DNA of 64,000 bases from Escherichia coli (GTDB lineage: Bacteria > Pseudomonadota > Gammaproteobacteria > Enterobacterales > Enterobacteriaceae), in the NCBI RefSeq assembly GCF_044324875.1, contig NZ_CP172185.1; one strand, given 5' to 3'. Below the pieces are notes generated by a model. That model saw only the letters and a list, made by a program, of their open reading frames with translations, was not told where the DNA came from and searched no databases. Numbering within the stretch: position 1 is the stretch's first letter; the number at the start of each line of letters is the position of its first letter. Both the position numbers and the translations under genes were made by a program. This document shows, piece by piece, positions 1,758 to 25,107 of this stretch.

Positions 1758-1759
1758 CT

Positions 1760-6416: not shown

Positions 6417-6489
6417 TTCGCCCTCCTCAAAATAAGATTATTACCATTATTGAAGCTGTTAATGCCCAAAGTAGCAACTTTGCTTGCAC

Positions 6490-6505
6490 TAGACCGACTG
6501 GTCTA
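6490..6505. promoter_or_regulatory. palindrome TAGACC-N4-GGTCTA in nemR promoter region (candidate NemR operator)
   Basis: Perfect 6-bp inverted repeat with 4-bp spacer about 15 bp upstream of nemR start. Confidence 0.45.
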
Positions 6506-6519
6506 CTACACTCCAACGC

Positions 6520-7119: not shown

Positions 7120-7155
7120 CAGGCATTTTTTATCACCAGACGACCGGGAGCCTTT

Positions 7156-8253: not shown

Positions 8254-8333
8254 TCCAACATTGCGAGCGGCGCAAAGCCGCCGCTATACTAAAACAACAT
8301 TTTGAATCTGTTAGCCATTTTGAGGATATAAAG

Positions 8334-8741
8334 ATGCGTCTTCTTCATACCATGCTGCGCGTTGGCGATCTGCAACGCTCCATCGATTTTTATACCAAAG
8401 TACTGGGCATGAAACTGCTGCGTACCAGCGAAAACCCGGAATACAAATACTCACTGGCGTTTGTTGGCTACGGCCCGGAAACCGAAGAAGCGGTGATTGA
8501 ACTGACCTACAACTGGGGCGTGGATAAATACGAACTCGGCACTGCTTATGGTCACATCGCGCTTAGCGTTGATAACGCCGCTGAAGCGTGCGAAAAAATC
8601 CGTCAAAACGGGGGTAACGTCACCCGTGAAGCGGGTCCGGTAAAAGGCGGTACTACGGTTATCGCGTTTGTGGAAGATCCGGACGGTTACAAAATTGAGT
8701 TAATCGAAGAGAAAGACGCCGGTCGCGGTCTGGGCAACTAA
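8334..8741 (+). CDS. gloA: glyoxalase I (lactoylglutathione lyase)
   Basis: 135-aa [29 protein letters not shown]...; recognised. Confidence 0.93.
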
Positions 8742-8843
8742 TCTCCTGCCGGGCGTGAACTCATCGCGCCCGCATCTTTACTGCATCGACAAGTAATATT
8801 TGTCATAATGCGCGCTGCAATTTATCCGTATTAAGAGAATCAG

Positions 8844-9491
8844 ATGTCCGATAACGCTCAACTTACCGGTCTGTGCGACCGTTTTCGTGGTTTTTATCCT
8901 GTTGTGATCGATGTTGAAACAGCCGGATTTAACGCCAAAACCGATGCGCTGCTTGAGATTGCCGCCATCACCCTGAAAATGGATGAACAAGGCTGGCTGA
9001 TGCCGGACACCACATTACATTTCCACGTCGAACCATTTGTCGGCGCAAATTTGCAGCCAGAGGCCCTCGCCTTCAACGGCATTGACCCGAACGATCCCGA
9101 TCGCGGCGCGGTCAGCGAATACGAGGCGCTGCACGAAATTTTTAAAGCTGTACGTAAAGGCATTAAAGCGAGCGGCTGTAACCGCGCCATTATAGTGGCG
9201 CACAACGCCAATTTCGATCACAGCTTTATGATGGCCGCCGCAGAACGCGCCTCACTGAAACGTAACCCGTTCCACCCTTTCGCCACTTTTGACACTGCTG
9301 CACTTGCCGGGCTGGCACTCGGACAAACCGTATTGTCAAAGGCTTGCCAGACCGCTGGCATGGACTTCGACAGCACCCAGGCGCACTCCGCGCTGTACGA
9401 CACCGAACGCACTGCTGTGCTGTTTTGTGAAATCGTCAACCGCTGGAAACGTCTGGGAGGCTGGCCGCTACCTGCCGCCGAAGAGGTGTAA
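8844..9491 (+). CDS. rnt: ribonuclease T
   Basis: 215-aa DEDDh exonuclease ORF ([11 protein letters not shown] motif); recognised. Confidence 0.93.
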
Positions 9492-9583
9492 TCGAGTCGA
9501 TGCCTGATGACATGCAATGATTCAGGCATCTATAGTGAGGCTATTCCACGCATCATGCATGATATTCACGGGGAATAGCGTTA

Positions 9584-12500
9584 ATGGCAGATAATCCAAA
9601 CCTTTCATCGCCCCTGCCGGACGTGTTTTCACCGGCAACCCGCGACTGGTTTCTTCGCGCCTTTAAACAGCCGACCGCTGTCCAGTCGCAAACCTGGCAT
9701 GTGGCGGCGCGAGGCGAACATGCGCTGGTGATTGCACCGACTGGCTCCGGGAAAACGCTGGCAGCATTTCTCTACGCCCTCGATCAGCTCTTCCGCGAAG
9801 GCGGCGAAGATACCCGCGAGGCGCATAAACGTAAAACCTCACGCATCCTCTATATTTCACCGATCAAAGCTCTGGGCACCGACGTTCAGCGCAACTTGCA
9901 GATCCCGTTACAGGGTATTGCCGATGAACGGCGGCGGCGCGGCGAAACGGAAGTCAATCTTCGCGTGGGGATCCGTACTGGCGATACGCCTGCACAGGAA
10001 CGCAGCAAACTCACCCGTAATCCGCCGGATATTCTGATCACCACACCCGAATCACTCTATCTGATGCTGACCTCCCGCGCGCGCGAAACGCTACGCGGCG
10101 TCGAAACGGTAATTATTGATGAAGTCCACGCGGTAGCGGGCAGTAAACGTGGTGCGCATCTGGCGTTAAGTCTGGAGCGGCTCGATGCGCTGCTCCACAC
10201 CTCAGCACAGCGAATTGGCCTTTCTGCCACTGTACGCTCAGCCAGCGATGTTGCAGCATTTCTTGGTGGCGATCGCCCGGTTACGGTAGTAAACCCGCCC
10301 GCAATGCGCCATCCGCAGATACGGATTGTCGTACCGGTCGCCAATATGGATGATGTCTCATCGGTCGCCAGCGGCACCGGCGAAGACAGCCATGCCGGCC
10401 GAGAAGGCTCCATCTGGCCATATATTGAAACGGGTATCCTTGATGAAGTTTTGCGCCATCGCTCGACCATTGTCTTTACTAATTCACGCGGGCTGGCGGA
10501 AAAACTGACGGCACGATTGAATGAACTTTACGCCGCACGCTTACAGCGTTCCCCGTCTATCGCCGTTGATGCGGTCCATTTCGAGTCGACCTCCGGCGCA
10601 ACCTCTAACCGTGTACAAAATAGCGACATTTTTATTGCCCGCTCACACCACGGCTCCGTCTCTAAAGAACAACGAGCAATCACCGAACAGGCGCTGAAAT
10701 CGGGTGAATTACGCTGCGTGGTCGCAACCTCCAGTCTCGAACTGGGGATTGATATGGGCGCGGTGGATCTGGTGATTCAGGTGGCAACGCCGCTTTCTGT
10801 TGCCAGTGGGTTACAACGCATTGGACGTGCCGGACACCAGGTAGGTGGTATCTCCAAAGGGCTTTTTTTCCCCCGAACCAGGCGTGACTTAGTCGATTCC
10901 GCAGTCATTGTAGAGTGTATGTTCGCAGGCAGGCTGGAAAACCTGACACCGCCGCATAATCCACTCGACGTCCTTGCGCAGCAAACCGTTGCCGCCGCGG
11001 CGATGGATGCATTACAGGTAGACGAATGGTAATCCCGCGTACGCCGTGCCGCACCGTGGAAAGATCTGCCAAGACGTGTTTTTGACGCCACGCTGGATAT
11101 GCTTTCCGGGCGCTATCCCTCTGGCGATTTTTCTGCTTTTCGCCCCAAACTGGTCTGGAACCGGGAGACCGGGATATTGACCGCCCGACCTGGCGCTCAA
11201 TTGTTGGCGGTTACCAGCGGCGGCACCATTCCGGATCGTGGCATGTATAGCGTGTTATTACCCGAAGGTGAAGAACAGGCCGGTTCGCGGCGGGTGGGTG
11301 AACTGGATGAGGAGATGGTATATGAGTCGCGGGTGAACGACATTATCACTCTCGGCGCTACCTCATGGCGGATCCAGCAAATCACCCGCGATCAGGTGAT
11401 TGTGACTCCTGCTCCAGGTCGTTCTGCCCGCCTTCCCTTCTGGCGTGGTGAAGGTAACGGACGTCCGGCAGAATTAGGCGAGATGATCGGCGATTTTCTC
11501 CATTTACTGGCGGATGGCGCGTTCTTTTCCGGGACTATTCCCCCGTGGTTGGCAGAAGAAAATACGATCGCCAATATTCAGGGGTTGATTGACGAGCAGC
11601 GCAACGCGACGGGCATCGTTCCAGGTAGTCGTCATCTGGTCCTCGAACGGTGCCGTGATGAAATTGGTGACTGGCGTATTATTTTGCACTCTCCCTATGG
11701 AAGACGGGTGCATGAACCCTGGGCGCTGGCGATTGCCGGGCGAATACATGCACTATGGGGCGCTGACGCGTCTGTGGTTGCCAGTGATGACGGCATTGTT
11801 GCGCGCATTCCTGACACCGATGGTAAATTGCCTGATGCCGCGATTTTTTTGTTTGAACCAGAAAAGTTGCTGCAAATTGTCCGCGAGGCGGTAGGCAGCT
11901 CGGCACTTTTCGCCGCCCGTTTTCGCGAATGCTCCGCGCGGGCATTATTAATGCCGGGCCGCACGCCGGGCCATCGCACCCCGCTCTGGCAACAACGGCT
12001 GCGCGCCAGTCAGTTGCTGGAAATCGCTCAGGGATATCCGGATTTTCCGGTCATTCTCGAAACACTACGCGAATGTCTGCAAGATGTTTATGATCTTCCC
12101 GCGCTGGAACGTTTGATGCGTCGCCTGAACGGTGGCGAAATTCAAATATCCGATGTAACGACCACTACGCCTTCGCCTTTCGCCGCCAGTTTATTGTTCG
12201 GCTATGTCGCGGAATTTATGTACCAGAGCGACGCCCCGCTGGCAGAGCGCCGGGCATCCGTACTGTCGCTGGACAGCGAGTTACTGCGCAATCTACTCGG
12301 ACAGGTCGATCCGGGGGAATTACTCGACCCGCAGGTCATTCGCCAGGTGGAAGAAGAGTTGCAACGACTGGCTCCTGGCAGAAGAGCGAAAGGTGAAGAA
12401 GGATTGTTCGACCTGCTGCGCGAACTGGGGCCAATGACCGTTGAAGACCTGGCGCAACGACATACAGGCAGCAGTGAAGAGATTGCGTCGTATCTGGAAA

Positions 12501-13284
12501 ATCTTCTTGCAGTAAAACGAATCTTCCCGACCATGATTAGCGGGCAGGAGCGTCTTGCCTGTATGGATGATGCCGCCAGGCTGCGCGATGCTCTCGGCGT
12601 ACGACTACCAGAGTCACTGCCAGAGATTTATTTGCACCGAGTCAGTTACCCGCTTCGCGACCTCTTTCTGCGCTATCTCCGGGCTCATGCTCTGGTCACG
12701 TCTGAACAACTGGCTCATGAGTTTAGTCTCGGTACTGCCATTGTCGAAGAGCAACTTCAGCAACTGCGCGAACAGGGGCTGGTGATGAATCTGCAACAAG
12801 ACATCTGGGTGAGCGATGAAGTATTTCGTCGTCTGCGTTTGCGCTCGCTGCAAGCCGCCAGAGAAGCGACACGTCCCGTTGCGGCCACGACCTATGCGCG
12901 ATTGCTGCTGGAACGTCAGGGCGTATTACCCGCCACCGATGGTAGCCCGGCACTCTTTGCCTCAACATCGCCAGGCGTTTATGAGGGCGTGGATGGCGTG
13001 ATGCGGGTGATCGAACAGCTTGCTGGCGTTGGTTTACCCGCCTCACTCTGGGAAAGCCAGATCCTGCCTGCCCGCGTACGCGACTATTCGCCAGAAATGC
13101 TCGATGAATTACTGGCAACCGGTGCGGTTATCTGGTCGGGGCAAAAAAAGCTGGGTGAAGATGACGGTCTGGTGGCACTGCATCTACAGGAATATGCCGC
13201 AGAATCGTTCACTCCCGCCGAAGCAGATCAGGCGAATCGTTCGGCGCTGCAGCAAGCGATAATCGCTGTTCTGGCTGACGGAGG
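9584..13284 (+). pseudogene. lhr: lhr (large ATP-dependent helicase) 5' portion: in-frame TAA at 11030-11032, then truncated by prophage insertion
   Basis: ORFs 9584..11032 and 11099..13297 are in the same frame, separated by a single TAA; Walker A GSGKT and DEVH helicase motifs; frame runs into the prophage left end and stops at 13295-13297. Confidence 0.85.
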
Positions 13285-13297
13285 TGATCAGACATGA

Positions 13298-13327
13298 GAT
13301 AAATGAAGGGGGATCCGTGAGATAAAT
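13298..13327. repeat. left-end terminal repeats (GAGATAAAT x2), putative transposase binding sites
   Basis: GATAAAT at 13298-13304 and 13321-13327, mirrored at the right end. Confidence 0.4.
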
Positions 13328-13480
13328 AACGAATTGGAGTGGGTTAACATGGGTTCTGGTGAACAGAACTGAAATTCTTTTCCGCTATACGATAGATAAG
13401 TCGGGCATTGAAATCATCCTTCCTGGCAACTTAGAATCGAGTTTGCTGAAACATGACCCGCAACAAAAAGGATGATTCCA

Positions 13481-13642
13481 ATGACTACTCAAAACAATAA
13501 GCATGATAGCCTGGATTACTCAGAAAAGCCCAAAAGCAAGCACATCGTGACGTTCGAGCGCGATTCCGGTAGAAAAGGAGAATCGTCTTCCTCTGCCAAT
13601 AAAACCACTATGCCGGCAGCCCCTGCCCCAGGGAAAAAATAA
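13481..13642 (+). CDS. hypothetical small hydrophilic protein (53 aa); may be spurious
   Basis: ATG with AAGGA 9 bp upstream; low-complexity Ser/Lys-rich product; convergent with the membrane-protein gene (3-bp gap). Confidence 0.25.
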   Translation: MTTQNNKHDSLDYSEKPKSKHIVTFERDSGRKGESSSSANKTTMPAAPAPGKK

Positions 13643-13645
13643 ACA

Positions 13646-14278
13646 TCATTCATCGTTCGTTGCACGAACGCGCCTGATCTCCACTCTGGCAATCTGATCT
13701 GCTGGAATATAGGTTGCCAGAGCTCCCCAGTACTTATCAACCACGCCTTTATACTCTTCCCATTCGTTACTGCCTGAAGGGCTGCTGTGCGTGACGTAAA
13801 GAACCATATCGCCTTTATTCCCCAGGGTAAACGGACCGTTAGGCCACTCTTCAAAGTTCCCTGGCAGCCGTGACATCATACCGGAACCATCGCGAAGAAT
13901 CACTCTGACCTCGGTAACGCTGAAGCCTGTTTGATCAAACATTGCCTGCCATGCTGAGCTGGTATCGTCAGACCATGAAATATCATTATTCCACAGTAAT
14001 CTGTACATCCATTTGCGACCGTACCTGCGCCACCACGCACCGCATGTAACGGCACACAGAAGTGCTGGTGGTGTTGCCAGCCAGGCATTCAGACCTGCCC
14101 ACATAACAGCCTGGTAAGCCATCATTGCTGTCAGGCCAAAAATCAGCGAAGAAAAAGTCACCTCAATGGGCTTGTGGTGATCCTTCAGTCCCACATTCGC
14201 AATAAAATACCCAATATAGCCACTGGTCAGGGTCACCAGTGTTGCCCATGGCAGATTTAACAACGAAACGTCAAACAT
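13646..14278 (-). CDS. prophage accessory membrane protein (about 3 TM helices plus ~120-aa soluble C-terminal domain), function unknown
   Basis: Start at MFDVSLLNL with GGGAGA SD 7 nt upstream; the longer ORF to 14356 would begin inside the terminator hairpin. Confidence 0.6.
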   Translation of the reverse strand: MFDVSLLNLPWATLVTLTSGYIGYFIANVGLKDHHKPIEVTFSSLIFGLTAMMAYQAVMWAGLNAWLATPPALLCAVTCGAWWRRYGRKWMYRLLWNNDISWSDDTSSAWQAMFDQTGFSVTEVRVILRDGSGMMSRLPGNFEEWPNGPFTLGNKGDMVLYVTHSSPSGSNEWEEYKGVVDKYWGALATYIPADQIARVEIRRVRATNDE

Positions 14279-14315
14279 ATTTTCTCCCTGCATCCTGAAT
14301 ACTAAAGAGAGAGCA

Positions 14316-14351
14316 TAAAAAAAGCACGGTAAGGGGTCTACCGTGCTTTTA
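14316..14351. terminator. bidirectional rho-independent terminator between early operon (mor) and left-end accessory gene
   Basis: A-run, 9-bp stem AGCACGGTA / TACCGTGCT with 7-nt loop, T-run. Confidence 0.55.
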
Positions 14352-14392
14352 TACAATAAGGAGATTTTTGAAAGGACTTTAACAAGCAGGAA

Positions 14393-14791
14393 TTATCTGG
14401 ATTTGTTAACGTCTTTCGTCTCCTCTGGCAGATCTTCATCAAACAACCTGCCCTGCATCCGATCCAGTTCTTCTTTTCTGACCCGCTTAACCACGCTGTA
14501 GACCCACTGAAGCGAAACACCAAACTTGCGGGCCAGTTCGTGGTGGTTGCGTCCGTTAAACTCCCTGAAGATTTCCCGGTCGCGCTGACTGACCTTCCAT
14601 ACCATGCCCATCGGGAAATAAACGTTTTGCCCGCCCCAGACCTGCATCATTCGGTTCGCGACGGCCTGACCAATCTGGTCGGCAATTGCGGGCTCAATAT
14701 CAATAATCTCGCGAACGGTCTCAGAGGTATGCTGTGCCAGCTCCACCAGGAGTTCCGGCCCTTTACTTCGAAACTGATTCAGGTCGCTCAT
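14393..14791 (-). CDS. mor: Mor-family middle/late transcription activator
   Basis: 132-aa ORF with the C-terminal segment FREFNGRNHHELARKFGVSLQWVYSVVKRVRK matching Mu Mor. Confidence 0.8.
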   Translation of the reverse strand: MSDLNQFRSKGPELLVELAQHTSETVREIIDIEPAIADQIGQAVANRMMQVWGGQNVYFPMGMVWKVSQRDREIFREFNGRNHHELARKFGVSLQWVYSVVKRVRKEELDRMQGRLFDEDLPEETKDVNKSR

Positions 14792-15254
14792 GTTTTACTC
14801 CCGCAGCTCTGTGCTGCCACTTCTTCAGTTTCTCAATAACACTGCTTGCCTGTTCAGTATTGAGCCAGCGCAGGGCGCTGATGCCCGTTTCCCGCTTGAT
14901 CCACCGCGCTAATGCATTTTCTGAACGGTCACGAACAATGCCGGCAGCAGCCATTTCAAGCCATAGCGCACGGATTTTCCTGGACTGCGGATGGTTATCC
15001 AGCGGTAAACCGGAGCTGGCTTTTCCGGCAGGCTTAACGCGAAAGCCTTTCCTTTTCATGGATTCCAGCACGCAGTTTAGTTGTGTGGTATCCATTCCTT
15101 TGGTTGAGGCTTTACCGGTCAGCCCCTGTAACATCTGGCGATAGGTGTCTTCATCCATACCCAGTTCATTACGGGCAATATGAATGAGCTGGATAAGACG
15201 TTGTTTAGTCATCATCGTTGCTCCTTTTACCTGCGCCACCGATATAATCGACAT
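14763..15254 (-). CDS. GemA/gp16-like protein (DUF1018)
   Basis: 163-aa ORF immediately upstream of mor as in Mu; family recognised from memory. Confidence 0.6.
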   Translation of the reverse strand: MSIISVAQVKGATMMTKQRLIQLIHIARNELGMDEDTYRQMLQGLTGKASTKGMDTTQLNCVLESMKRKGFRVKPAGKASSGLPLDNHPQSRKIRALWLEMAAAGIVRDRSENALARWIKRETGISALRWLNTEQASSVIEKLKKWQHRAAGVKHERPESVSK

Positions 15255-15420
15255 ATAAAGGAAGCGCCACAGGCCAGCACAGGAACATCACCGACCAGCT
15301 AATCCAGTAGCCGGCACCACTGTAACGTGAATAAAACCCTGAACGGCGGTGCAGTTCAGCAGTACACCAACCGACAAAACAATACCAGAACAGGGCACAT
15401 ACAACAGATTCAGCCGTCAT
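15205..15420 (-). CDS. small membrane protein (about 72 aa)
   Basis: ATG overlaps upstream stop (ATGACGGCTGA); G-rich SD; hydrophobic product. Confidence 0.4.
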   Translation of the reverse strand: MTAESVVCALFWYCFVGWCTAELHRRSGFYSRYSGAGYWISWSVMFLCWPVALPLYVDYIGGAGKRSNDDD

Positions 15421-15640
15421 TCTGAATATCCCCCCAACTGATATGAATATTACGGGCAGCAATGACAGGGTCGTTATTCCACCATGCACCTGACATGTAT
15501 TTTTCAACCTGTTCGCGTCCGGCAATAACACCAATTGTGATCCCCGGCCTGACGTTCTTAAAAAAGGCGCGGGCAAAAAGGTATCTGGCAGATATTCGGC
15601 AGGCTTTTAATTTCCGGCTGTTACCTGATAGCGTAATCAT
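15410..15640 (-). CDS. hypothetical early protein (76 aa)
   Basis: ATG with TGGAGG SD; start overlaps stop of upstream gene. Confidence 0.4.
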   Translation of the reverse strand: MITLSGNSRKLKACRISARYLFARAFFKNVRPGITIGVIAGREQVEKYMSGAWWNNDPVIAARNIHISWGDIQNDG

Positions 15641-16320
15641 CTGGCCTCCAGTTTCTGTTGTTCCTGCCCACTGACCGGGCGGTGCAGTCTGACGTTCTGC
15701 CCTTCACGAAACCCCGCATAGCGCGAGGCGTCGCCATTGCGGCTTCTTCCCGGTTTACGCGCCCTGGTGGTTTGCGTCTGCGGGTATTTATGTTCCAGCC
15801 ACTGCTGCATCAGTTCACGCTCATCATCGGTCAGGGCAAAGGACTGTATTTCACTGATAACGGCCAGCACCCAGCCTTCGGCAAACTGGTCTCCACGGCT
15901 GGTGCGGGTGGCGGTTTTTATTCTTTTGTTCTGTGCACTGATATACTGCTGACGCGCCTTTTTCAGCTGACGGGCCAGCACTTCCCAGGTGTATGCAGCC
16001 AGTGCCGCACGTTCCCGGTTGCCGTAGAACCCCACAGACGGATGCGTGCCGGGGTGAATGATGGAGTTAACACCAAATACCTCGCGGATGATGTTCATCA
16101 GGCCTGGCATGTAGCGCGGTGGACGGAGACTGCCTGTCGGCCAGTAGTGACTGATGGTTTCATCAATATCACTCATAGCAATGTCGGAATGTGTGATGCC
16201 GTGAACATCCATCAGTTTACGGGCTCGGCGCAGTGCCAGAGCGGCCTCGTGCGGGTTGCCGGATGCGGCCAGCGCCAGCAACTTTTTCAGTTTCTCAATG
16301 TGTTTATTCTGGTCTGTCAT
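15637..16320 (-). CDS. early protein with DUF2786-like N-terminus (IEKLKKLLALAASGNPHEAALALRRARKLM)
   Basis: Start at MTDQNK with GGAG upstream, overlapping upstream stop (ATGA); family assignment tentative. Confidence 0.5.
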   Translation of the reverse strand: MTDQNKHIEKLKKLLALAASGNPHEAALALRRARKLMDVHGITHSDIAMSDIDETISHYWPTGSLRPPRYMPGLMNIIREVFGVNSIIHPGTHPSVGFYGNRERAALAAYTWEVLARQLKKARQQYISAQNKRIKTATRTSRGDQFAEGWVLAVISEIQSFALTDDERELMQQWLEHKYPQTQTTRARKPGRSRNGDASRYAGFREGQNVRLHRPVSGQEQQKLEAR

Positions 16321-16532
16321 TGTTCTGTATCTCCGGTATTTTTCTGCCGTTTCCATGCCCGGACAGCGTCGGACAGCTCTTTCAGGCTGTATGCTGCTTT
16401 AAGCTTTTCCCATAACCACTGTGTTGTTATGTGCATCAGCAGGGCAGCCAGGGCTGCCCCCGCACTGAGGCATGTCGCCAGGCCAGTAAGAATCAGTATC
16501 CATGCGGTGATTTCCCTGAGTATGTCAGCCAT
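16317..16532 (-). CDS. small membrane protein (71 aa)
   Basis: Hydrophobic core ILILTGLATCLSAGAALAALL; translationally coupled to downstream gene. Confidence 0.45.
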   Translation of the reverse strand: MADILREITAWILILTGLATCLSAGAALAALLMHITTQWLWEKLKAAYSLKELSDAVRAWKRQKNTGDTEQ

Positions 16533-16546
16533 TGAATGCCTCCCGG

Positions 16547-16843
16547 TTACTCGTTCGTGTAAATCACGCCCAGTCGTGCAGCCAGACGTTCCAGTTTTTT
16601 CTGTTTGTGGAAGTCAATCAGCCGGTCCATCCCCTGAAGGCGCAATTGCTCTGTCATGATTTCCACGTCTGCCAGCTCTGCCGCGAGGTCGCTTTCGCTG
16701 CCCTGTCCGTTCAGATTGCGGGCAGCACTGGCCGCCAGTTCAGCGGCCTCTTCTGTCAGTTTCAGGGCCTGTGCGTCCGGCCCGAAACGCTGCAGGGCCA
16801 GACGGTAGAGGGCGGTGCGGGTGAGTATGGTGTTCCGTGTCAT
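16547..16843 (-). CDS. hypothetical early protein (98 aa)
   Basis: ORF in co-directional tight array of early genes. Confidence 0.45.
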   Translation of the reverse strand: MTRNTILTRTALYRLALQRFGPDAQALKLTEEAAELAASAARNLNGQGSESDLAAELADVEIMTEQLRLQGMDRLIDFHKQKKLERLAARLGVIYTNE

Positions 16844-16852
16844 GCCGCGCCC

Positions 16853-17125
16853 TCAGTGCTTCCGGCTGACGGTGATGTGCAGGCCGCCTTCTGCAGTGGT
16901 TTCCATCCGGTACGGCACCTCATGCTCTGCCGTGTGGGTGAGTGTGTTCATCAGTACCTGCAGGGCAGCCGCCTTTCCGTTGGTTGCCACAATGGCCTGT
17001 GTGGTCATGCTGATTAGCGCCGTCAGGACGTGCTTCACATCGGTGAGGTCGCGGCATTCACACTCGTTGACATAGTGTTCAACAAGGGTTCGGGTGCGCT
17101 GTCGTGCTTCCTGTGGGGTAATCAT
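16853..17125 (-). CDS. hypothetical early protein (90 aa)
   Basis: ORF in early gene array; stop overlaps next start. Confidence 0.45.
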   Translation of the reverse strand: MITPQEARQRTRTLVEHYVNECECRDLTDVKHVLTALISMTTQAIVATNGKAAALQVLMNTLTHTAEHEVPYRMETTAEGGLHITVSRKH

Positions 17126-17316
17126 TGCGAGTCCTCCCTGTCAGGGCGGGAGAATTCCATGACGGGCACGTCTGCCGAAAAATGCTGGCTGCAGTACGGG
17201 CAGACCAGGGTGACGCGTACCGCAGGGATGTGGTATTTACCGGACATCACGGCGATGGCGCTGTGAAAACGCAGGGCTGTTATATCCCTCTCGCACTGAA
17301 TACATTTAAATATCAT
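17122..17316 (-). CDS. small zinc-ribbon protein (CxxC...CxxC)
   Basis: 64-aa ORF with CIQC and CPYC pairs. Confidence 0.45.
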   Translation of the reverse strand: MIFKCIQCERDITALRFHSAIAVMSGKYHIPAVRVTLVCPYCSQHFSADVPVMEFSRPDREDSQ

Positions 17317-17413
17317 GATTTAATTCTCCTCTGTTTCCGGCGTGCAGAAGCCCGCGGCGCTGACGCCGGAATAAAAAAGAAAATGTTTTTATTAAATAAT
17401 TAACGTGGTGTGT

Positions 17414-17944
17414 TTACTGCACATCCTGCTCAAAAGGAATTATTGAAAAATCCTCAATGTCGCTTTTAATGGAAATACCGGGAATATTTTTCACGGCCTC
17501 TTTTTCATTCAGGATAGCGTCTTTATTTATTTCCTCTTTTACACGAATAAAGCGCTCAAGCCCCAGACGTCTCAGTAATTCAATAACATTATCCGCCCCA
17601 CGGATACTGACTGATGGCGGACGGTTTCGCCACTGCACCTCGCCGGTGGTAAGGTTAGCGAACTTCACCTTCCCGTTGCCGGTCAGTTCATCACGGTGCG
17701 CCTCACACCATGTCTGGATACCGGACTGCAGTTCGGCCATGCGTTTTTTCAGGCTCTCGGTGAGCGGGGCATAACGTGCGGTGATATCGCCAATGGCGTC
17801 ATTCATTTCTGTTTCAGCCCTGACCAGTTCACGTTGTGCGTCACCGAGTAGTCTGATTCCCTCAATGACCTCTTCGCGTGTCCCTGGTACCCAGAGTGCC
17901 GCTGCGGCCTTGATACGTTTTGCCCCTTTTGTACTTTTTGCCAT
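17414..17944 (-). CDS. gam: Gam-like host-nuclease inhibitor (Mu Gam family)
   Basis: 176-aa ORF aligns along its length with recalled Mu Gam (TEMNDAI, WCEA.RDELT, RPPSVSIRG, GLERFIR, EDFSIIPFEQ). Confidence 0.85.
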   Translation of the reverse strand: MAKSTKGAKRIKAAAALWVPGTREEVIEGIRLLGDAQRELVRAETEMNDAIGDITARYAPLTESLKKRMAELQSGIQTWCEAHRDELTGNGKVKFANLTTGEVQWRNRPPSVSIRGADNVIELLRRLGLERFIRVKEEINKDAILNEKEAVKNIPGISIKSDIEDFSIIPFEQDVQ

Positions 17945-17971
17945 ATTTTATGATTTCTCCGGTTGTGCTGA

Positions 17972-18241
17972 TTACCACAAAGATTCCGGCCACACGACGC
18001 GACAGCCGTGCAGTTCGAAAACGCCCTGACGGAAATATCCCCTGTGGTCATGTCCGGTATACAGATAACAGGCCTTTCCCTGCTCAAGCATGCGCATGCA
18101 ATGCGCACTCCGGGAAACGCGGATGACAGGTTTGTTACCCCTGATGGTGATGCTTTGTACATCCGTGTTCGTCGCCTTAAGCGCCATAATGGCTGACTGC
18201 ACTTTGCTGATTTGCTGGTTGATACCTGTGGTGGATTTCAT
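17972..18241 (-). CDS. hypothetical early protein at the kil position (89 aa)
   Basis: Sits between MuB-like and gam-like genes, where kil lies in Mu; no sequence assignment. Confidence 0.4.
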   Translation of the reverse strand: MKSTTGINQQISKVQSAIMALKATNTDVQSITIRGNKPVIRVSRSAHCMRMLEQGKACYLYTGHDHRGYFRQGVFELHGCRVVWPESLW

Positions 18242-18243
18242 TA

Positions 18244-19410
18244 TTAAACTCCTTTGACAACGTCAGCGTTGACCTGTGGAACCCCGATTTCAGCGGCCAG
18301 ATTCATGGCGGCTATTACCAGGTTACTGACGGCCAGCGGATACAGCAGGCTGACCATATTTTTACGATGACTTCCCGGATTGCTCAGGCGGGCACGTATG
18401 GCATCCACTGCGCTGGCGTCCATAATGTCCGTCAGTTGTTTACCGGCCCGTTGCAGTTTGAACGTCAGAAATTCTTCAAGGTTATTGTCCAGAGGCAGAA
18501 GTTCGACCACCTCACAGCGCTGAACGACTTCACGGACTTCCATATTGCGTTCAGACAGTTTTGTCGCCAGTTCCGGCTGGCCAATCAGCACGATGGACAG
18601 CAGTTTTTTGAAACCGGACTCCAGCTCAAAAAAGCGTTTGAGGTGTTTCAGTGTCGGAATGGGCAGACTGTGGGCCTCCTCAATCACCAGAACGTGGCTG
18701 AACCCCGCCTGGCTGCTGTCTTTCAGGACGCGATGCAACTGGCGAAAGCGGGCGTCCTGACTGCGTCTGATGCTTTCCAGTGGTGCGATGGTACTGATAA
18801 TGGCTTCGGCAATAGCTGCTGCCTTCAGGGTTTTCCCTTTCACATCGTTGTCTTCCATAGCGATGATGTATGGCTCGATAACAATTACCGGCGCATTCTC
18901 GCGGTTAATACGTTCAGTCAGGTCGCGGCGCAGCGTGGATTTACCCGCACCGGACTCACCGATGACGGCCATAAACCCACCATGACGGGCTGTCTGGTAC
19001 AGCGCCTCACGCACGTAGCGAATGTCCGGGGTGGTGAACACATCATCAGAACCCTGCATGGCTTCATCGGCGAACGGGTCACGGAAAAGACCAAACGCTT
19101 TTTTGGTTGCTGGAAATAACACCTGTTTTTTGAGTAACATATTCTCTTCCTCACTGAGGCTCGTTTTATCTGTGGTACCCGCTGTACGGGGCGTGGCCGC
19201 GCCCTGTACAGCATCAAAACTCTTCGTTGTATCAATCCCCTGACTTTCCAGCCAGGACGCAAGACGCCGGCGCACTTCTCCGGGGCTGGTGCGGGGCCAC
19301 GCGTTATGATTCACAATCTGGGCCAGCGTGGCCTCAGAAACATCGACAGCTCTCGCCGCCACCGCCTGTGGAATACGGGCCTCTTTCAGTTGCTGCTTCA
19401 GTACCAGCAT
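18244..19410 (-). CDS. MuB-like transposition ATPase (AAA+)
   Basis: Walker A GESGAGKST; ATG at 19408-19410 preceded by GAGGAGGG SD; directly downstream of transposase. Confidence 0.75.
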   Translation of the reverse strand: MLVLKQQLKEARIPQAVAARAVDVSEATLAQIVNHNAWPRTSPGEVRRRLASWLESQGIDTTKSFDAVQGAATPRTAGTTDKTSLSEEENMLLKKQVLFPATKKAFGLFRDPFADEAMQGSDDVFTTPDIRYVREALYQTARHGGFMAVIGESGAGKSTLRRDLTERINRENAPVIVIEPYIIAMEDNDVKGKTLKAAAIAEAIISTIAPLESIRRSQDARFRQLHRVLKDSSQAGFSHVLVIEEAHSLPIPTLKHLKRFFELESGFKKLLSIVLIGQPELATKLSERNMEVREVVQRCEVVELLPLDNNLEEFLTFKLQRAGKQLTDIMDASAVDAIRARLSNPGSHRKNMVSLLYPLAVSNLVIAAMNLAAEIGVPQVNADVVKGV

Positions 19411-19420
19411 GTTTCCCTCC

Positions 19421-21190
19421 TCAGTTGCCGTTAACAATGCTGATAACGCTGCTGCGGGCCGGCGTGGTCAGCGTGGCCATGACTTCATCCAGTGCGGCTT
19501 CCGGTACGCCGTCCGGGTACTGTGCTGTTAACTGGCGGTAATGTTCCGGCGTCCAGGTCAGGCCGTCGGCGCTGAACTTATCGCGCAGGGCTTTCGCGGC
19601 CTCCACATGAGTCATGGGACGCTGTTCAGTGCGCGGTCCGCGTACGTCAGAGGCCTGACCACGCTTCGGTATACAGGCCGGAAGTGTGGCGTCATCAATA
19701 TGTTTATACGGGTCAAGCCGCCCGCCGAACGGCAGCGCCTTCGCCTTGCGTGCGGCAGCTGCATCTGCGGCGTTGTCTGTACCGGTGACCAGCGCTTCGG
19801 TTTCTTTTGCCGCCATCTGCGCCGGGGTTTCCGGCAGGGCTTTGTAACTTTCGCCAAATACCGCCGCGCCTTCAGCAAAGCCAAACTCGTTCTTTCTGAC
19901 CTCTTCGACCAGGAAGAACGTCTCGTGGCCGTCCTCACCGGTCAGAACCACCTGTGCCACATCGCTGCGCCACGGGTTACGGGTAATCATCAGTTTTTCA
20001 CCGACCAGTACGCCCGGTACCGTTGATACGTCAAATTCAGTGCCCCGGAACGAGACACGAAGTTTTGGCGTGACTTTGCGGAGTTCTGGTGCCGCCACAG
20101 CCAGTTCACGACATACCTCAACGGAAGGCGCTTTTTTCAGCTGCTCAGCAGTAATCTTCAGCCAGATATCCGTGCGGGTTTTACCGTGGCGGCTGTGAAC
20201 AGCCGTGGCGTTAAAGTGGCTGCGCCATTTCGCGGCCAGCGCGTTGAGTTCTTCCAGACTGTGAACCGGCCGGAACTTCAGACCCGGCTCCAGCTTGCGT
20301 TCGATAATGTCACGCGCCTTTTCCACCTGTCCGGTGGCGCGGGCGTTATGCGGCTTGTGCGCTATCAGGTCGATGCCCAGTGAGCGGCACATGTTTTTCG
20401 TCATACCCGCGGTGTTTGCCGAGCCGGGGTCGAGATAGAGTATTTTTGGCACGCCGTGCAGCACGTCTGCGCCGCCACGCTCCTGCATGGCGTTGATAAG
20501 CACAGAACACAGGTTCTCACCGGATTCCGCACCCGTCACATACTCAACGTAAATCCAGCCGCTGGCATGGTCGGTAATCTCGTAACTCCACACGCGGTCA
20601 CTGGCGATACGGGCAAGGTTAGCGGGCTTGTTTTTGTAGAATTTCGCGCTGTCCATCACCTGCAGCCCTTTATGTCCATTGCTCAGGTAGTAAAGCGTGC
20701 AGAGTGAGGCGTCAATCTGCCAGACATGATTGGGGTGCAGACTGGCCACTTCGGTATGCGGTGCAGGGGCATCCAGTTGTTCCGGGTGCAGGCCATAGTT
20801 ACGCAGGGCACGACTGATGGCATCTTCGGACAACGGGAAAAACTCACCGGTGGTTTCATCTGTTCTGCCTGCGGAGATAAAGCCGTTAGCCCGCAGGGTT
20901 TCCACTGCATCCGCGATGGAATAGAGACGCTTACCGTTCTTGCGGGTGGCCTCACGTAGTGTGGCAGATATCAGCGCGGCTTCGTCGCGGGTCAGGGTGC
21001 TGCGTCCGGCATCGGCGCGTTTTTTGCGTTTATCAGTCACAGAGACCTCCTTCAGCCTGCGCAGCAGAGTGGCGCGGGACATGCCAAGTTCAGCACAGGC
21101 AGCGTCGTATATTGCACCGCGTTTACCATGCCCCGCATTACGTGCCGCGCGGGCTGTTTCAACAAGTTTTTCAGTCAGTGCCGGGGTCAT
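19421..21190 (-). CDS. DDE transposase (Mu A-like function, rve-type catalytic core with N-terminal HTH)
   Basis: 589-aa ORF; HTH RATLLRRLKEV; HVWQIDASLC core; position upstream of MuB-like gene. Confidence 0.8.
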   Translation of the reverse strand: MTPALTEKLVETARAARNAGHGKRGAIYDAACAELGMSRATLLRRLKEVSVTDKRKKRADAGRSTLTRDEAALISATLREATRKNGKRLYSIADAVETLRANGFISAGRTDETTGEFFPLSEDAISRALRNYGLHPEQLDAPAPHTEVASLHPNHVWQIDASLCTLYYLSNGHKGLQVMDSAKFYKNKPANLARIASDRVWSYEITDHASGWIYVEYVTGAESGENLCSVLINAMQERGGADVLHGVPKILYLDPGSANTAGMTKNMCRSLGIDLIAHKPHNARATGQVEKARDIIERKLEPGLKFRPVHSLEELNALAAKWRSHFNATAVHSRHGKTRTDIWLKITAEQLKKAPSVEVCRELAVAAPELRKVTPKLRVSFRGTEFDVSTVPGVLVGEKLMITRNPWRSDVAQVVLTGEDGHETFFLVEEVRKNEFGFAEGAAVFGESYKALPETPAQMAAKETEALVTGTDNAADAAAARKAKALPFGGRLDPYKHIDDATLPACIPKRGQASDVRGPRTEQRPMTHVEAAKALRDKFSADGLTWTPEHYRQLTAQYPDGVPEAALDEVMATLTTPARSSVISIVNGN

Positions 21191-21205
21191 AGCTTGTCTT
21201 CCCTG

Positions 21206-21523
21206 TTATCCGATTCTGGCGGCAATTTTTCTGGCACGGTCGCGCAGGGTTTCGCCATCGCAGGTTTTCACCACGTTATTTACCGGTTGCGGCGCAACTG
21301 CCGGGCGCAATGCTGACTGATGCTGCAGACGTCTTATCTGCTGCATCAGCATCACTTCCATCGTCAGTACAAACGGATGCGCCTCCTGTGCGGGTACGCA
21401 GATTTCACCGGAAGGTGTCACCACGCGGAAACCCTGCACCATCTCCGGCAGCAGATTACACAGTGCGTGCCCCAGTGCCTCCGGGCTGTCCATCAGGATA
21501 TTTTGTGTGTTATCCGTGTTCAT
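21206..21523 (-). CDS. hypothetical early protein (105 aa)
   Basis: ORF between ner-like and transposase genes. Confidence 0.4.
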   Translation of the reverse strand: MNTDNTQNILMDSPEALGHALCNLLPEMVQGFRVVTPSGEICVPAQEAHPFVLTMEVMLMQQIRRLQHQSALRPAVAPQPVNNVVKTCDGETLRDRARKIAARIG

Positions 21524-22440
21524 TACTGCATGCCCTCCGGTCGGTTGATTTCAGGCTCCGGTTCGGTCAGCCATGCGGGGACATCGTTACCCGATGGTGC
21601 GGCATCAAGGTCGAACGTCTCACGCAATGCATGAACACTGCGTTCAATCTGGCAGACCAGACCGGCCATGAAATCTCTGGGGGTATCAATCATGTTTTTA
21701 CTGCAGTATTCACACAGGGTTTCAAAGGCACCGGAGAGCCGGACGGCGATGGCAGATTCCGCCTCAACCGCTAATGCGGTCACTTCCGCCCGCAGCTTCT
21801 TCACCTCTTCATCAGGCTCAGGCGGTTGAATACGGGATTTCTTCTCCAGTTTTGTGGCCAGTTCGTTGATTTTTTCGTCCTTTCCGGCAAGCACCTGTTG
21901 CTGAGCTGCGTTAGTTTCGCGCGCTTCACGCAGGGCCTGGCGAAGTTCACGTACTGACATGCGATCAACATCATCAAGCGTCAGGCCGGCAACTGTGCCG
22001 CCGTCGGCCAGTTCGGCAAGGTCTTCATCGTCTTCAGCAACAAGTTCAAATAATTTTGCCTTACCCAAAAGCGACAACGTTGTCGCTTTTGGCTCTAGTT
22101 TTGGTGAAAGGTATTTCAAAGATGCTTTCATCATTCGTTGTGCTGCGCGCACGTGCAAACCAAGTTGTTCTTCTACAATTCCAACAAAGTCCCCGTGTGG
22201 CTCATTTTCTTTTAAGATGATCAGCCGTTTACCCGCTTCCAGCATAGATTCAGCACTCTGCGCCATATAAAAACGTGCTTCGTGAACGATGCGATCACGT
22301 TCATAAGGCAGTCCATCACCAAACTGCTGCATGATCTCCATGCGATGCTGTGTCATGGCATTCAGGCTGACGTTGAGATCATCCGACAGCGGTACCTCGG
22401 CGTTCAGTTCAGTGTTAACCGGTGATTTGGTGCGTCCCAT
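21523..22440 (-). CDS. hypothetical early protein (305 aa, acidic coiled-coil region)
   Basis: ORF between ner-like and transposase genes; no confident family assignment. Confidence 0.45.
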   Translation of the reverse strand: MGRTKSPVNTELNAEVPLSDDLNVSLNAMTQHRMEIMQQFGDGLPYERDRIVHEARFYMAQSAESMLEAGKRLIILKENEPHGDFVGIVEEQLGLHVRAAQRMMKASLKYLSPKLEPKATTLSLLGKAKLFELVAEDDEDLAELADGGTVAGLTLDDVDRMSVRELRQALREARETNAAQQQVLAGKDEKINELATKLEKKSRIQPPEPDEEVKKLRAEVTALAVEAESAIAVRLSGAFETLCEYCSKNMIDTPRDFMAGLVCQIERSVHALRETFDLDAAPSGNDVPAWLTEPEPEINRPEGMQ

Positions 22441-22450
22441 TGATTACTCC

Positions 22451-22759
22451 TTACAAACGACTACCTGAAATGACACGTTGGTTGATTTCGTTAATGCGAT
22501 CCTGTGCACGTGCCATCTCGTTACTGTGGGCCATGGCGATCTGCAGCAACTGGATGCCCGGTGCGAAACGCCCGTTTTCCAGTTTCAGGGCCAGTCCTTC
22601 TTCAATGAGGGTGTTGAGTGCCCGGTTGATGTTTGCCGGTGACTCGTGCAGTGCTGCCGCCAGTTCACCATTGGAAATACCGTTCAGGGCATGACCGCGC
22701 AGCGCTTTGAGTACCCGGAGGATGCGACTGCCGGAGCTTGAAACATTCGTCTTACTCAT
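22451..22759 (-). CDS. winged-helix DNA-binding protein (about 102 aa)
   Basis: HTH-like segment ILRVLKALRGHALNGISNGELAAAL; start at MSKT has the better SD spacing. Confidence 0.45.
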   Translation of the reverse strand: MSKTNVSSSGSRILRVLKALRGHALNGISNGELAAALHESPANINRALNTLIEEGLALKLENGRFAPGIQLLQIAMAHSNEMARAQDRINEINQRVISGSRL

Positions 22760-22811
22760 CTGCATACCTCTTTTGCGATATGTGATAACCTTTTACAAAG
22801 AATCAAAATAT

Positions 22812-23000
22812 TCAGGCTGCCTGAGCTGTTGATTTCAGCCCCAGTTTCACGGCGATTTCATGGGATTTACCGTAACGTGCTTTGCTCTGCCCATTGAGAA
22901 CGCGGTATACCTCATTGCGGTTGTAGCCGTTTTCTTCTGCCCAGCGGGTGAAAGTGATCCCGCGCTGGCGGAAGAGAGCTTTGACTTGTTCTGCAGTCAT
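22812..23000 (-). CDS. ner: Ner-like small DNA-binding protein (Cro-equivalent)
   Basis: 62-aa ORF with AAGGAGA SD, divergent from the repressor; Ner-like HTH pattern. Confidence 0.55.
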   Translation of the reverse strand: MTAEQVKALFRQRGITFTRWAEENGYNRNEVYRVLNGQSKARYGKSHEIAVKLGLKSTAQAA

Positions 23001-23100
23001 CGTTGTCTCCTTTGTTGATGCAATGATGTTTGCCTTATGTGTGATAGATTATGGTGCAGATTATCTCACCAGTCAACTTAAAGAGTGCAGAAAAACTCAC
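23001..23100. promoter_or_regulatory. divergent early control region between ner and repressor (candidate operators)
   Basis: 100-bp AT-rich spacer containing the direct repeat AGATTAT twice (GATAGATTATGGTGCAGATTATCTC). Confidence 0.35.
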
Positions 23101-23439
23101 ATGATCGGGTTACGTATTAAAGAAGAAAGAGAGCGTCTATCTCTTACACAGCAAGGGTTGGCTGATGCTATCGGTGTGGCAAAGAGAACTTTTATTGATT
23201 GGGAAAAAGATCGCACTTCTCCTACTGCAGTGCAGTTATCTGCACTATCAGAAATCGGTGTAGATGTTTTGTATGTAGTTACTGGGGTGCGGAGTCAGCC
23301 TGTTGTTGCACCTTATATGTCACAAGAAAAGAAAGAGTTAATGGATGCATTCGACGAGATGAGCCCCGAACAACGGAGGGCAATTCTTGAGGTCGGCAAA
23401 GTCTTCATTCAACCCAAACCAAGCAAACTCGCAGGCTGA
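23101..23439 (+). CDS. XRE-family HTH repressor (c-like)
   Basis: Internal start MIGLRIKEERERLSLTQQGLADAIGVAKRTFIDWEKDRTSP, a classic XRE HTH; divergent from ner. Confidence 0.6.
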   Translation: MIGLRIKEERERLSLTQQGLADAIGVAKRTFIDWEKDRTSPTAVQLSALSEIGVDVLYVVTGVRSQPVVAPYMSQEKKELMDAFDEMSPEQRRAILEVGKVFIQPKPSKLAG

Positions 23440-23525
23440 TTCTGACCTGGACAGAAAGGACAGGTGGTTGATCTGGATGCTTTCAGAAAACGCCGTCAGT
23501 AGCATGGCAGAAATCGGCGGGCTTA

Positions 23526-23548
23526 CCGGAAAGCACTGTACTTTCCGG
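23526..23548. terminator. bidirectional terminator between convergent repressor and dam genes
   Basis: Stem CCGGAAA / TTTCCGG with 9-nt loop followed by T-rich tract. Confidence 0.5.
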
Positions 23549-23557
23549 TTATGGCTT

Positions 23558-24322
23558 TTAGAAATTGCAGATCACCAGCTCACGGCGTGGAGTTGATTTG
23601 CCTGCCAGACTGTAGTTGATGTTCACTGTCTGTATGTTCAGTCCAGTGAACACCTCGCGCATCTGCGGGATGTCGTTCACCGAAATTATCATCTTTCCTC
23701 TGATGCACCGGGCCAGCTCTGCCAGCCGCGAGTAGTTCCCTTCAGGAAAATCCACACCATAGCCTTCTGTACCCAGATACGGCGGGTCACAGTAGAACAG
23801 CGTGTGCGGACGGTCATAGCGCTCAATGCACTGTTGCCAGTCCATGTGTTCTATCACCGTTCTGGAAAGCCGCAGGTGTGCCGCTGACAGTTCTTCCTCG
23901 ATACGCAGCAGGTTGAAGCGTGGCGGGGATGTGGTGGAGGTGCCGAAGCTGTGCTCTGCCACCTTGCCGCCAAACGCCTGCTTCTGGAGGTAGTAGAACC
24001 GTGCTGCACGCTGGATATCCGTCAGTGTTTCTGTCGGGGTGATCTGCAGCCATTTGTAGATCTGCCGGCTGACCAGCGCCCATTTGAACTGGCGGACAAA
24101 TTCTTCCAGATGATGTTTTACCACCCGATACAGATTTACCAGTTCACCATTGATATCGTTAATGACTTCGAGCTTACCAGGTGTCTTAAGAAAATAGAGC
24201 GCTGCTGCGCCGCAGAACGGCTCCACGTAACATTCATGCGCCGGAAACAGCGGCAGGATGTGTTTTGCCAGGCGACGTTTGCCACCAATCCATGGAACGA
24301 TGGGTAATGTCTGCATTTTCAT
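23558..24322 (-). CDS. Dam-type N6-adenine DNA methyltransferase (D12 class)
   Basis: 254-aa ORF with DPPY catalytic motif and N-terminal FCGAAALYF SAM-binding motif. Confidence 0.8.
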   Translation of the reverse strand: MKMQTLPIVPWIGGKRRLAKHILPLFPAHECYVEPFCGAAALYFLKTPGKLEVINDINGELVNLYRVVKHHLEEFVRQFKWALVSRQIYKWLQITPTETLTDIQRAARFYYLQKQAFGGKVAEHSFGTSTTSPPRFNLLRIEEELSAAHLRLSRTVIEHMDWQQCIERYDRPHTLFYCDPPYLGTEGYGVDFPEGNYSRLAELARCIRGKMIISVNDIPQMREVFTGLNIQTVNINYSLAGKSTPRRELVICNF

Positions 24323-24514
24323 AATCTGTAAGCCTTTTACAATTATTAAAAATATGGCAGGCTAGTCTGGTCTCGCGAGACTGACTGAACCCCGGTCGGC
24401 TCACAGCGCATTCCTGTGGGACGATGGCCAGCCCGGTGGGTCCGAAGCACCGGGCTGGTCGTTCTTTCATGATGCGGCAGGGATGAAGTGATTTCTGTTA
24501 ATGTGGTTTAGGGA

Positions 24515-24730
24515 TTATCCGGGGCGATTTTCTGACCTTATCTGGTCCAGGGCATAAGTGATCCCTTCTGCAAAAACAGAAGTATCAAACTGCTTTTGTA
24601 TTTCCTGAAAATGAACAGTGGCACGACAGACACTCAGTTCTCCGCGATGTAACCGGATAATATCTTCCAGAACATTGTTCACTGCTTCGGCACGGCGCTG
24701 ATGTTCTGTTAACGTTAATCGGGGATTCAT
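24515..24730 (-). CDS. hypothetical 71-aa protein upstream of dam
   Basis: ATG with AAGGAG SD 8 nt upstream; no recognisable motif. Confidence 0.5.
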   Translation of the reverse strand: MNPRLTLTEHQRRAEAVNNVLEDIIRLHRGELSVCRATVHFQEIQKQFDTSVFAEGITYALDQIRSENRPG

Positions 24731-25107
24731 GATGCACTCCTTAAATGATGATTTTTATGTACTCACCGGCAAAATATTCTGCCGATTACTGAACACGCAT
24801 CCGGCTCCTCAGGTTTTGATTTATTCTGGTTTTTTCGATATCCCGGACCAGGTTGATCACGACAGAAAAAGTGCCGGTATTTTATTGATACGCTGATATG
24901 GCTTCGGGATAACAGCTATATTCGTTACTCTCAGTTGCTGGCTGTGGGAGCGGCTGATGTCGTCCTCACGGAAAAAACGCTCTGTCTGCTCAATGCCATG
25001 CCGACCTTTCTGCAGCCCCGGCCCGTACCATTTAAAGAGTCACTTCTGGATGCAGTAAAAACCGGTGAAAATGCAGTCATCGCTGAATGCGTATCCCGGA
25101 TTATGCG

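Follow-up and report, generated by a model that had tools for sequence, protein, structure and literature searches.

The window examined here is a stretch of 64,000 nucleotides (nt) from an Escherichia coli chromosome (contig NZ_CP172185.1), and the subject of this report is an array of small genes that occupies positions 15205–18241 on its minus strand. Our reading, to which we assign a probability of roughly 80%, is that an intact BcepMu-like transposable prophage has in this interval the accessory or "semi-essential" (SE) part of its early lytic operon, whose gene products would act early on the host cell. The array consists of nine co-oriented open reading frames (ORFs) of 64 to 227 amino acids (aa), packed at a coding density of about 95% and referred to below by the names given in Table 1: with a Kil-like protein (p89) and Gam at its head, a structured non-coding gap after gam, and a distal series of seven genes that includes a putative MazG-like hydrolase (p98) and a protein with the domains DUF2786 and DUF7168 (p227).

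The element that carries the array extends from 13285 to 53653 (40,369 base pairs, bp), has TG and CA as its ends, and lies between the copies of a 6-bp direct repeat, CGGAGG, at 13279–13284 and 53654–53659, which represents the target duplication at its insertion site, the lhr helicase gene, broken at 13284. The interval matches Escherichia phage PhiKM, of the genus Bcepmuvirus, at 98.5% identity. The transposase, which is Tn552-like, and the B protein, which is ExeA-like, belong to the BcepMu type and not to that of MuA and MuB, and gemA and mor have homologues in BcepMu and in Mu alike, as found with phmmer. By these comparisons the phage is a BcepMu-like virus and not Mu.

The gene order on the minus strand runs from a ner-like gene through three more genes, A, B, the nine genes of the array, gemA and mor to a terminator, the last being a terminator-like hairpin at 14350–14320 (minus) just after mor, in which a 13-bp stem is followed by TTTTTAT. 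A consensus scan places a promoter-like site at 23076–23048 (minus); inside the interval no convincing terminator-like site was found, and the three weak minus-strand consensus matches there all lie in coding sequence. On induction, a single leftward transcript probably starts from the early promoter, which lies beside the repressor gene, and it would take in A, B and the nine genes before stopping at the strong terminator after mor. Within this transcript the short overlaps and spacers would favour coupled translation in two blocks, set apart by the structured 97-nt gap, which would mask the ribosome-binding site of the distal block.

Judged by their sequences, all nine ORFs are real genes, because the RefSeq/NCBI annotation of an identical copy in strain Ec1117 has exactly the same nine, because all nine proteins match PHROG families (E from 5e-15 to 2e-76), because the ratio of nonsynonymous to synonymous substitution rates (dN/dS) against divergent alleles is 0.08–0.16 for p64, 0.14–0.47 for p90, 0.09–0.21 for p98, 0.31–0.42 for p71a and 0.36 for p71b, and because p76, of which the fetched loci held no divergent allele and which hence has no dN/dS, has, in a large protein collection, homologues from Salmonella, Citrobacter, Proteus and Serratia that are 57–75% identical to it and share 25 invariant residues. 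By these ratios the measurable genes are under purifying selection. The rival view, that not all of the short ORFs are genes and that some are open by chance, can point to a long plus-strand ORF at 15658–16659, which is an antisense shadow and illustrates that this G+C-rich stretch yields spurious frames, and to the dN/dS that p76 lacks among the fetched loci; set against PHROG matches for nine proteins out of nine, independent NCBI calls, the measured ratios and the invariant residues of p76, it retains next to no probability.

The array had been singled out in an original prediction made from the letters of the window, which envisaged eight or more short ORFs of 64–228 aa between gam and gemA, with ATGA junctions and unrecognisable sequences, and which named lack of conservation as a sign that the ORFs were spurious. 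Nine ORFs were confirmed, the DUF2786 protein having 227 aa rather than 228, and their conservation, with dN/dS of 0.08–0.47 where it is measurable, speaks against spurious frames. The interval begins upstream of gam, at the B stop codon, and the ATGA overlaps were found at three junctions only (p64/p90, p71a/p227 and p227/p76): p76/p71b and p71b/gemA overlap by 11 and 8 nt, and the remaining spacers measure 2, 27, 9 and 14 nt, with a single larger gap of 97 nt after gam. Nor did the sequences prove unrecognisable throughout, p89 being Kil-like, p98 MazG-like and p227 a DUF2786 and DUF7168 protein. Other searches were negative: NCBIfam matched none of all ten proteins scanned, p98 included; PDB sequence searches returned no significant match for p98 and p227 singly or for profiles of the p227, p98, p89 and p76 families; and Pfam held no match for p89, p64, p90, p71a, p76, p71b or Mu Kil, one Pfam scan having run eight non-Gam proteins as one concatenated sequence, so that weak matches could be slightly blunted.

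Table 1. Features of the early region, with positions in the window
Feature	Position	Strand	Description
transposase A	21190-19421	minus	
B-like transposition ATPase (ExeA family)	18244-19410	minus	upstream boundary; phmmer vs BcepMu gp08 E 2e-145; NCBI call
p89	18241-17972	minus	89 aa; phrog_2041 E 3e-36; NCBI name 'HI_1482 family protein'
gam	17944-17414	minus	176 aa; phrog_491 E 5.5e-73; NCBI name agrees
conserved non-coding gap	17317-17413	minus	97 nt; hairpin 17335-17371; outer helix 17323-17384
p64	17316-17122	minus	64 aa, CxxC...CxxC zinc-ribbon; phrog_3401 E 1.6e-40
p90	17125-16853	minus	90 aa; phrog_3691 E 1.3e-55
p98	16843-16547	minus	98 aa, probable minimal MazG-like protein; best PHROG E 2.8e-34
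p71a	16532-16317	minus	71 aa, predicted single-pass membrane protein; phrog_3958
p227	16320-15637	minus	227 aa, DUF2786 + DUF7168
p76	15640-15410	minus	76 aa; phrog_3681 E 4e-54
p71b	15420-15205	minus	71 aa, two hydrophobic segments; phrog_6436 E 5e-15
gemA (gp16 family)	14763-15212	minus	downstream boundary; phmmer vs Mu GemA E 9e-24, vs BcepMu gp02 E 1e-34; NCBI call

A Kil-like protein, Gam and the gap after gam

HMMER, run in full over 1.84 billion representative proteins, yielded 55 relatives of p89, nearly all about 85–110 aa long, which follow the pattern (K/R)P-V-I-R-I ... C ... G-A-Y ... QG-F ... GC(R/K)V(V)WSESLH. This family aligns by hhalign with the whole length of Mu Kil at 76% probability (E 2e-5), and its hidden Markov model (HMM), run against 5229 six-frame ORFs of Mu-like loci, recovers the Mu Kil ORFs, Mu's own included, in 29 cases out of 29 (E 6e-4 to 0.018), with better scores going only to the post-B ORFs of the loci L078, L080 and L081 and with the next match being noise (E 0.53). 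In the reverse direction, a search of 38,880 PHROGs gives two Kil families as the best non-self matches of p89 (E 0.019 for phrog_6381, and 0.11), and gp07 of BcepMu, the ORF after B, reaches the p89 family at E 0.008; in all these phages the first gene after B is a p89/Kil-type ORF. Because profile comparison, HMM ranking, reverse PHROG search, the gp07 match and shared position agree, p89 is assigned as a remote member of the Kil superfamily. It resembles Mu Kil (gp5) in its position directly after B, its similar size, a C-terminal GC(R/Q)(V/I)(V/I)W motif and full-length profile similarity, and differs from it in sharing only about 17% identity and in belonging to a different PHROG family (2041, vs 2743 and 6381 for Kil).

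Expression of Mu kil leads to spherical cells, according to a statement in PMC3961180 that cites Waggoner 1989, and host viability after infection is restored by deleting the Mu SE region (PMC3325207). By remote homology, p89 would be expected to halt growth or change cell shape as Mu Kil does. Two very long proteins in the search results, P0065 (4728 aa) and P0087 (1901 aa), contain 41 and 5 repeated stretches, respectively, that resemble p89 residues 18–66; they may be true repeat proteins, or else artefacts of assembly or of gene calling.

Members of the Gam family bind DNA ends and block RecBCD-type nucleases, and the Gam of this phage, which is 62% identical to Mu Gam (phmmer E 8e-66), would be expected from this family property to shield DNA ends from such nucleases. 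In BcepMu no Mu-type Gam occurs among gp01–gp13 (L085, BcepMu 1-12000), SSB-like and HU-like genes being present instead, whereas this phage has one. Together with the kil-like gene and the gap element, gam looks like part of a module common with Mu-type phages that sits within a BcepMu-type genome.

The 97-nt gap aligns with the 98-nt gap that follows gam in Mu (L084 6326-6423), and the genes downstream of the two differ. Both gaps contain an AT-rich block, a pyrimidine tract, a GC-rich hairpin, the sequence GAAACAGA, a Shine-Dalgarno sequence and a start codon; the hairpin arms are TTCCGGCGT and ACGCCGGAA, 19 nt apart, in this phage, and GGCGCGA and TCGCGCC, 16 nt apart, in Mu. The predicted RNA fold has a minimum free energy of -29.1 kcal/mol (z -4.5) here and of -17.6 kcal/mol (z -2.0) for the Mu element, and each of the 20 distinct gap sequences is predicted to form the central hairpin. 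By our reading of the folds, 18 of the 20 also form an outer helix in which upstream sequence, usually the pyrimidine tract, pairs with the ribosome-binding site of whichever gene follows; in this phage (17323–17384) the pyrimidine tract pairs with the ribosome-binding site of p64. Compensatory changes occur at three of the nine stem pairs of the hairpin, and 85% of cells in the stem are paired, vs 33–56% when the partners are slid. Rfam gave no match at E <= 1 in 13000–25000. As a hypothesis, the gap may be a translational or stability control element placed between the B-kil-gam block and the distal block. The hairpin is ruled out as a terminator, the T-run coming before the stem and not after it on either strand, and an alternative local hairpin proposed by RNAalifold was discarded because it would need a 2-nt loop in this phage. 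In the GenBank record of PhiKM an antisense coding sequence (L001 10934-11155, minus in the locus) is laid over the gam–p64 gap and p64, and the 64-aa zinc-ribbon gene is left unannotated; this antisense call is likely a misannotation.

Proteins of the distal block

Several lines, each weak or indirect but concordant, make it likely that p98 is a minimal MazG-like all-alpha nucleoside triphosphate (NTP) pyrophosphohydrolase. Its four best PHROG matches are all annotated as NTP-PPase/MazG (E 2.8e-34, 5.5e-4, 4.4e-3 and 0.02), and Pfam, at scores below threshold throughout, recognises PRA-PH (best E 2.3e-3) in 15 and MazG in 3 of the 20 family members. The motif EExxE...ExxD is the metal-binding signature of all-alpha NTP pyrophosphohydrolases; it is intact in p98, where it lies on consecutive helices, and across the 20 family members E31, E32, E56, D59, E61 and E65 are invariant and E35 is kept in most, with K or a gap in three. 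The AlphaFold (AF2) model is all-helical, with a mean confidence score (pLDDT) of 84, and its top PDB matches by Foldseek are DCTPP1, a HisE-type protein, Bacillus MazG, AF1178 and YpjD, all at E >= 0.19 and with TM scores of about 0.5.

As a hydrolase, p98 would most likely act on non-canonical (d)NTPs or on an alarmone. Another pyrophosphatase, from a different PHROG family, is encoded in this region of BcepMu as gp06, and a distant relative (L078 7741-8298) has an HD-domain deoxynucleoside monophosphate (dNMP) phosphatase at the equivalent position, so that with p98 a nucleotide hydrolase emerges as a recurrent feature of the region. By description p98 is like phage MazG-like pyrophosphatases and other small single-domain MazG proteins, being small, all-alpha and equipped with EExxE...ExxD, and encoded among phage accessory genes; unlike established MazG proteins it stays below Pfam thresholds. 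A precedent in the literature is the phage MazG-like protein Atd1, which is reported to deplete (p)ppGpp and to counter TIR-STING toxicity (bioRxiv 10.1101/2022.06.09.495361).

The largest product, p227, had been described as DUF2786-like, and Pfam bears this out, with an N-terminal PF10979 (DUF2786; E 2.3e-10) followed by PF23771 (DUF7168; E 4.1e-24), a pair that recurs in most of the p227 homologues found. Our literature search on DUF2786 and DUF7168 found no functional study, and Foldseek against AFDB50 returned at least 798 clusters, among which all 50 of those listed are uncharacterised, some of them being encoded by prophages of Shewanella, Haemophilus ducreyi, Neisseria and Kingella. 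The residues K132, R133, K135, T138, R142 and D144 form an invariant basic motif, and this motif and weak matches of the central beta-alpha-beta-beta-alpha part to KH domains hint at a basic, KH-like core that might possibly bind nucleic acid. No p227 homologue was detected in Mu, and of the accessory genes it is p227 that survives in the most distant relatives fetched (L080–L082).

The remaining five proteins are smaller. The zinc-ribbon character claimed for p64 holds up, its four cysteines (C5, C8, C39 and C42) being kept in divergent orthologues: in distant relatives, orthologues of the same PHROG with all four cysteines stand directly after gam. A link between p64 and Mu gp6 (E5), a CxxC...CPxC protein, is not claimed, since the phmmer E of 0.021 was reached only in a 28-sequence database; the p64-family HMM does not single out gp6 among the 5229 ORFs, and the common signal of the two is just a very weak match of each to phrog_4875. 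The alleles of p90 share 72–81% identity and have mosaic N-termini; p90 and p76 gave no informative match in Pfam, PHROG or, for the p76 family profile, PDB searches. Two small transmembrane proteins had also been proposed, and this is borne out for p71a, whose 19-residue Kyte-Doolittle maximum of 2.02 indicates a clear transmembrane segment, but only in part for p71b, which is borderline at 1.51 although, with two hydrophobic, aromatic-rich segments, it is probably membrane-bound as well. Shallow HMMs of p90, p98, p71a, p76 and p71b detected no homologue in the early regions of Mu or BcepMu.

Relatives and known early regions

Presence and absence were compared gene by gene among eighty loci fetched via Gam, a check that the original prediction had suggested, and some genes turned out to be kept and others swapped or lost. 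Wherever the fetched DNA of a close relative spans the region, p89, p64, p90, p98 and p227 are all present. By comparison, p71a was undetected in about ten close relatives, or was there as a 67–70% variant, p76 was undetected in two complete loci (L013 and L032), and p71b gives way to a variant of 39–41% identity in most E. coli copies and in roughly every second close relative. In distant BcepMu-like phages the kil-like gene and gam persist, the zinc-ribbon, MazG-like and p227 genes occur in varying combinations, and the rest is made up of other cassettes, whereas true Mu-like loci share only gam, gemA and mor, plus kil at a remote level. To judge from these loci, a conserved set (kil-like, gam, zinc-ribbon, MazG-like and DUF2786 genes) is interleaved with fast-turnover cassettes. 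Among the other cassettes at equivalent positions, L045 6992-7450 matches the "host nuclease inhibitor" family phrog_1518, and L042 8186-8755 encodes a 189-aa protein that matches many PHROGs without assigned function.

The region was predicted to correspond to the Mu semi-essential early region, and this stands in part. That segment of Mu, which extends from kil to gp14 between B and gemA, agrees with the present interval in position and strand within the early operon and in having gemA and mor downstream, as well as in its 62% identical Gam, a Kil-family gene directly after B (remote in the case of p89) and a homologous post-gam gap of about 97 nt with a hairpin; where the correspondence fails is in the phage itself, which is BcepMu-like, and in the other ORFs, which have no detected counterpart there. 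Mu gp6–gp14 include no detectable homologue of p64, p90, p98, p71a, p227, p76 or p71b, and the Mu region, unlike that of this phage, has no MazG-like or DUF2786 gene. As described in PMC3325207, the Mu SE region contains many small ORFs of no known function and contributes to host killing.

Genome architecture is shared with BcepMu (a Burkholderia phage; gp03–gp07) and the BcepMu-like prophages of Salmonella and E. coli, in which the early operon likewise runs toward the left end. BcepMu has strong matches to B, gemA and mor, a post-B gp07 that belongs to the p89 superfamily and the pyrophosphatase gp06 in the region; it is unlike the present phage in the matter of Gam set out above. Small host-modulating early proteins encoded just downstream of the transposition genes are also a feature of the Pseudomonas Mu-like phages (for example Tip of D3112 and Aqs1 of DMS3), and no sequence relationship of these to the present genes is expected.

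Within E. coli the region is carried by 639 of 5426 complete genomes (~12%, about one in eight), including ST131 strains such as JJ1886. Its chromosomal sites differ between genomes, which is the expectation for a transposable phage; in strain Ec1117 the identical early region adjoins inaA, and insertion sites therefore vary by strain. Upstream of the prophage, lhr falls into two ORFs in one frame (9584–11032 and 11099–13297), which implies an in-frame stop codon at 11030–11032, and lhr may already have been a pseudogene before the insertion. Two further genes of the prophage stand near the early operon: a DNA adenine methylase gene at 23558–24322 (minus), beside the repressor and early-promoter region and so annotated in PhiKM and Ec1117, and a 210-aa gene at 14278–13646, at the left end after the mor terminator, which only some relatives have.

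Competing explanations and significance

Several points weigh against reading the interval as the accessory segment of an early operon. Five of the nine products are without any informative similarity; co-transcription is deduced solely by way of consensus scans; the link to Kil is remote, with an HMM E of about 1e-3 and an hhalign probability of 76%; p98 lies under the Pfam thresholds and has no significant PDB match by sequence or fold (best E 0.19); and four close variants carry single mismatches in the gap stem, for which reason, and because the sequences are related, the covariation support is moderate. We nevertheless prefer this reading, and to it we attach, tentatively and as a linked pair that may well not hold, the proposals that at least one of p64, p90, p76, p71a, p71b and p227 is a takeover or anti-defence effector of a mechanism not yet described, and that the post-gam element is a translational gate which sets expression of the distal block apart from that of B-kil-gam.

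An anti-defence role is plausible for Gam and possible for the MazG-like protein, and a broader version of this idea, which overlaps with the explanation that we prefer, would make the whole array a dedicated anti-defence island in which most genes each neutralise an immune system: RecBCD in the case of Gam, abortive infection based on alarmones or nucleotide signalling in that of the MazG-like protein, and restriction or other systems in that of the small proteins, with the turnover of cassettes reflecting an arms race. Such an island would agree with Gam being a nuclease inhibitor, with the Atd1 precedent (bioRxiv 10.1101/2022.06.09.495361), with the swapping and loss of cassettes among near-identical phages, and with the other nucleotide hydrolases and the "host nuclease inhibitor" family match that relatives hold at the same positions. 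However, PADLOC, which covers defence systems and not anti-defence proteins, matched none of the ten proteins, and the most conserved members, p227 and the Kil-like protein, span many genera with differing immune repertoires, so that a phage-intrinsic or general host-takeover role fits them better; as an account of most of the genes we consider the island rather unlikely. A part in transposition or replication, with p227 and perhaps p64 binding nucleic acid and aiding replicative transposition or DNA-end handling instead of acting on the immunity or physiology of the host, is a little less probable again. It could draw on the invariant basic motif and KH-domain matches of p227, on its wide occurrence in Mu-like prophages and on its place next to gam and gemA in distant relatives (L080–L082) that lack every other ORF, but Mu transposes efficiently without a p227 homologue, and PDB sequence and profile searches gave p227 no similarity to replication or transposition proteins. 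It is improbable that the prophage expresses p71a and p71b for lysogenic conversion or superinfection exclusion instead of using them as early lytic functions: both are small, membrane-type and optional or swappable, as such genes might be, yet they lie inside the early operon as overlapping or close neighbours of other genes, with no promoter-like site of their own, and should therefore be repressed in the lysogen.

As the accessory segment of an early lytic operon, the region adds one more case to a known class, its genes having been annotated before, for the most part as hypothetical proteins, and it would not surprise a specialist; what the analysis offers is a refined annotation of a common and neglected prophage, by which current understanding is not overturned. 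The region is common in E. coli, yet most of its early genes are without a known role, and among the leads that it provides are a Kil homologue in BcepMu-like and FluMu-like phages and a minimal MazG-like hydrolase that recurs at one position. Since p227 is conserved over Mu-like prophages of many genera, its function would inform the whole phage group, and the post-gam element could account for the way in which transposable phages set the dose of their toxic accessory genes.

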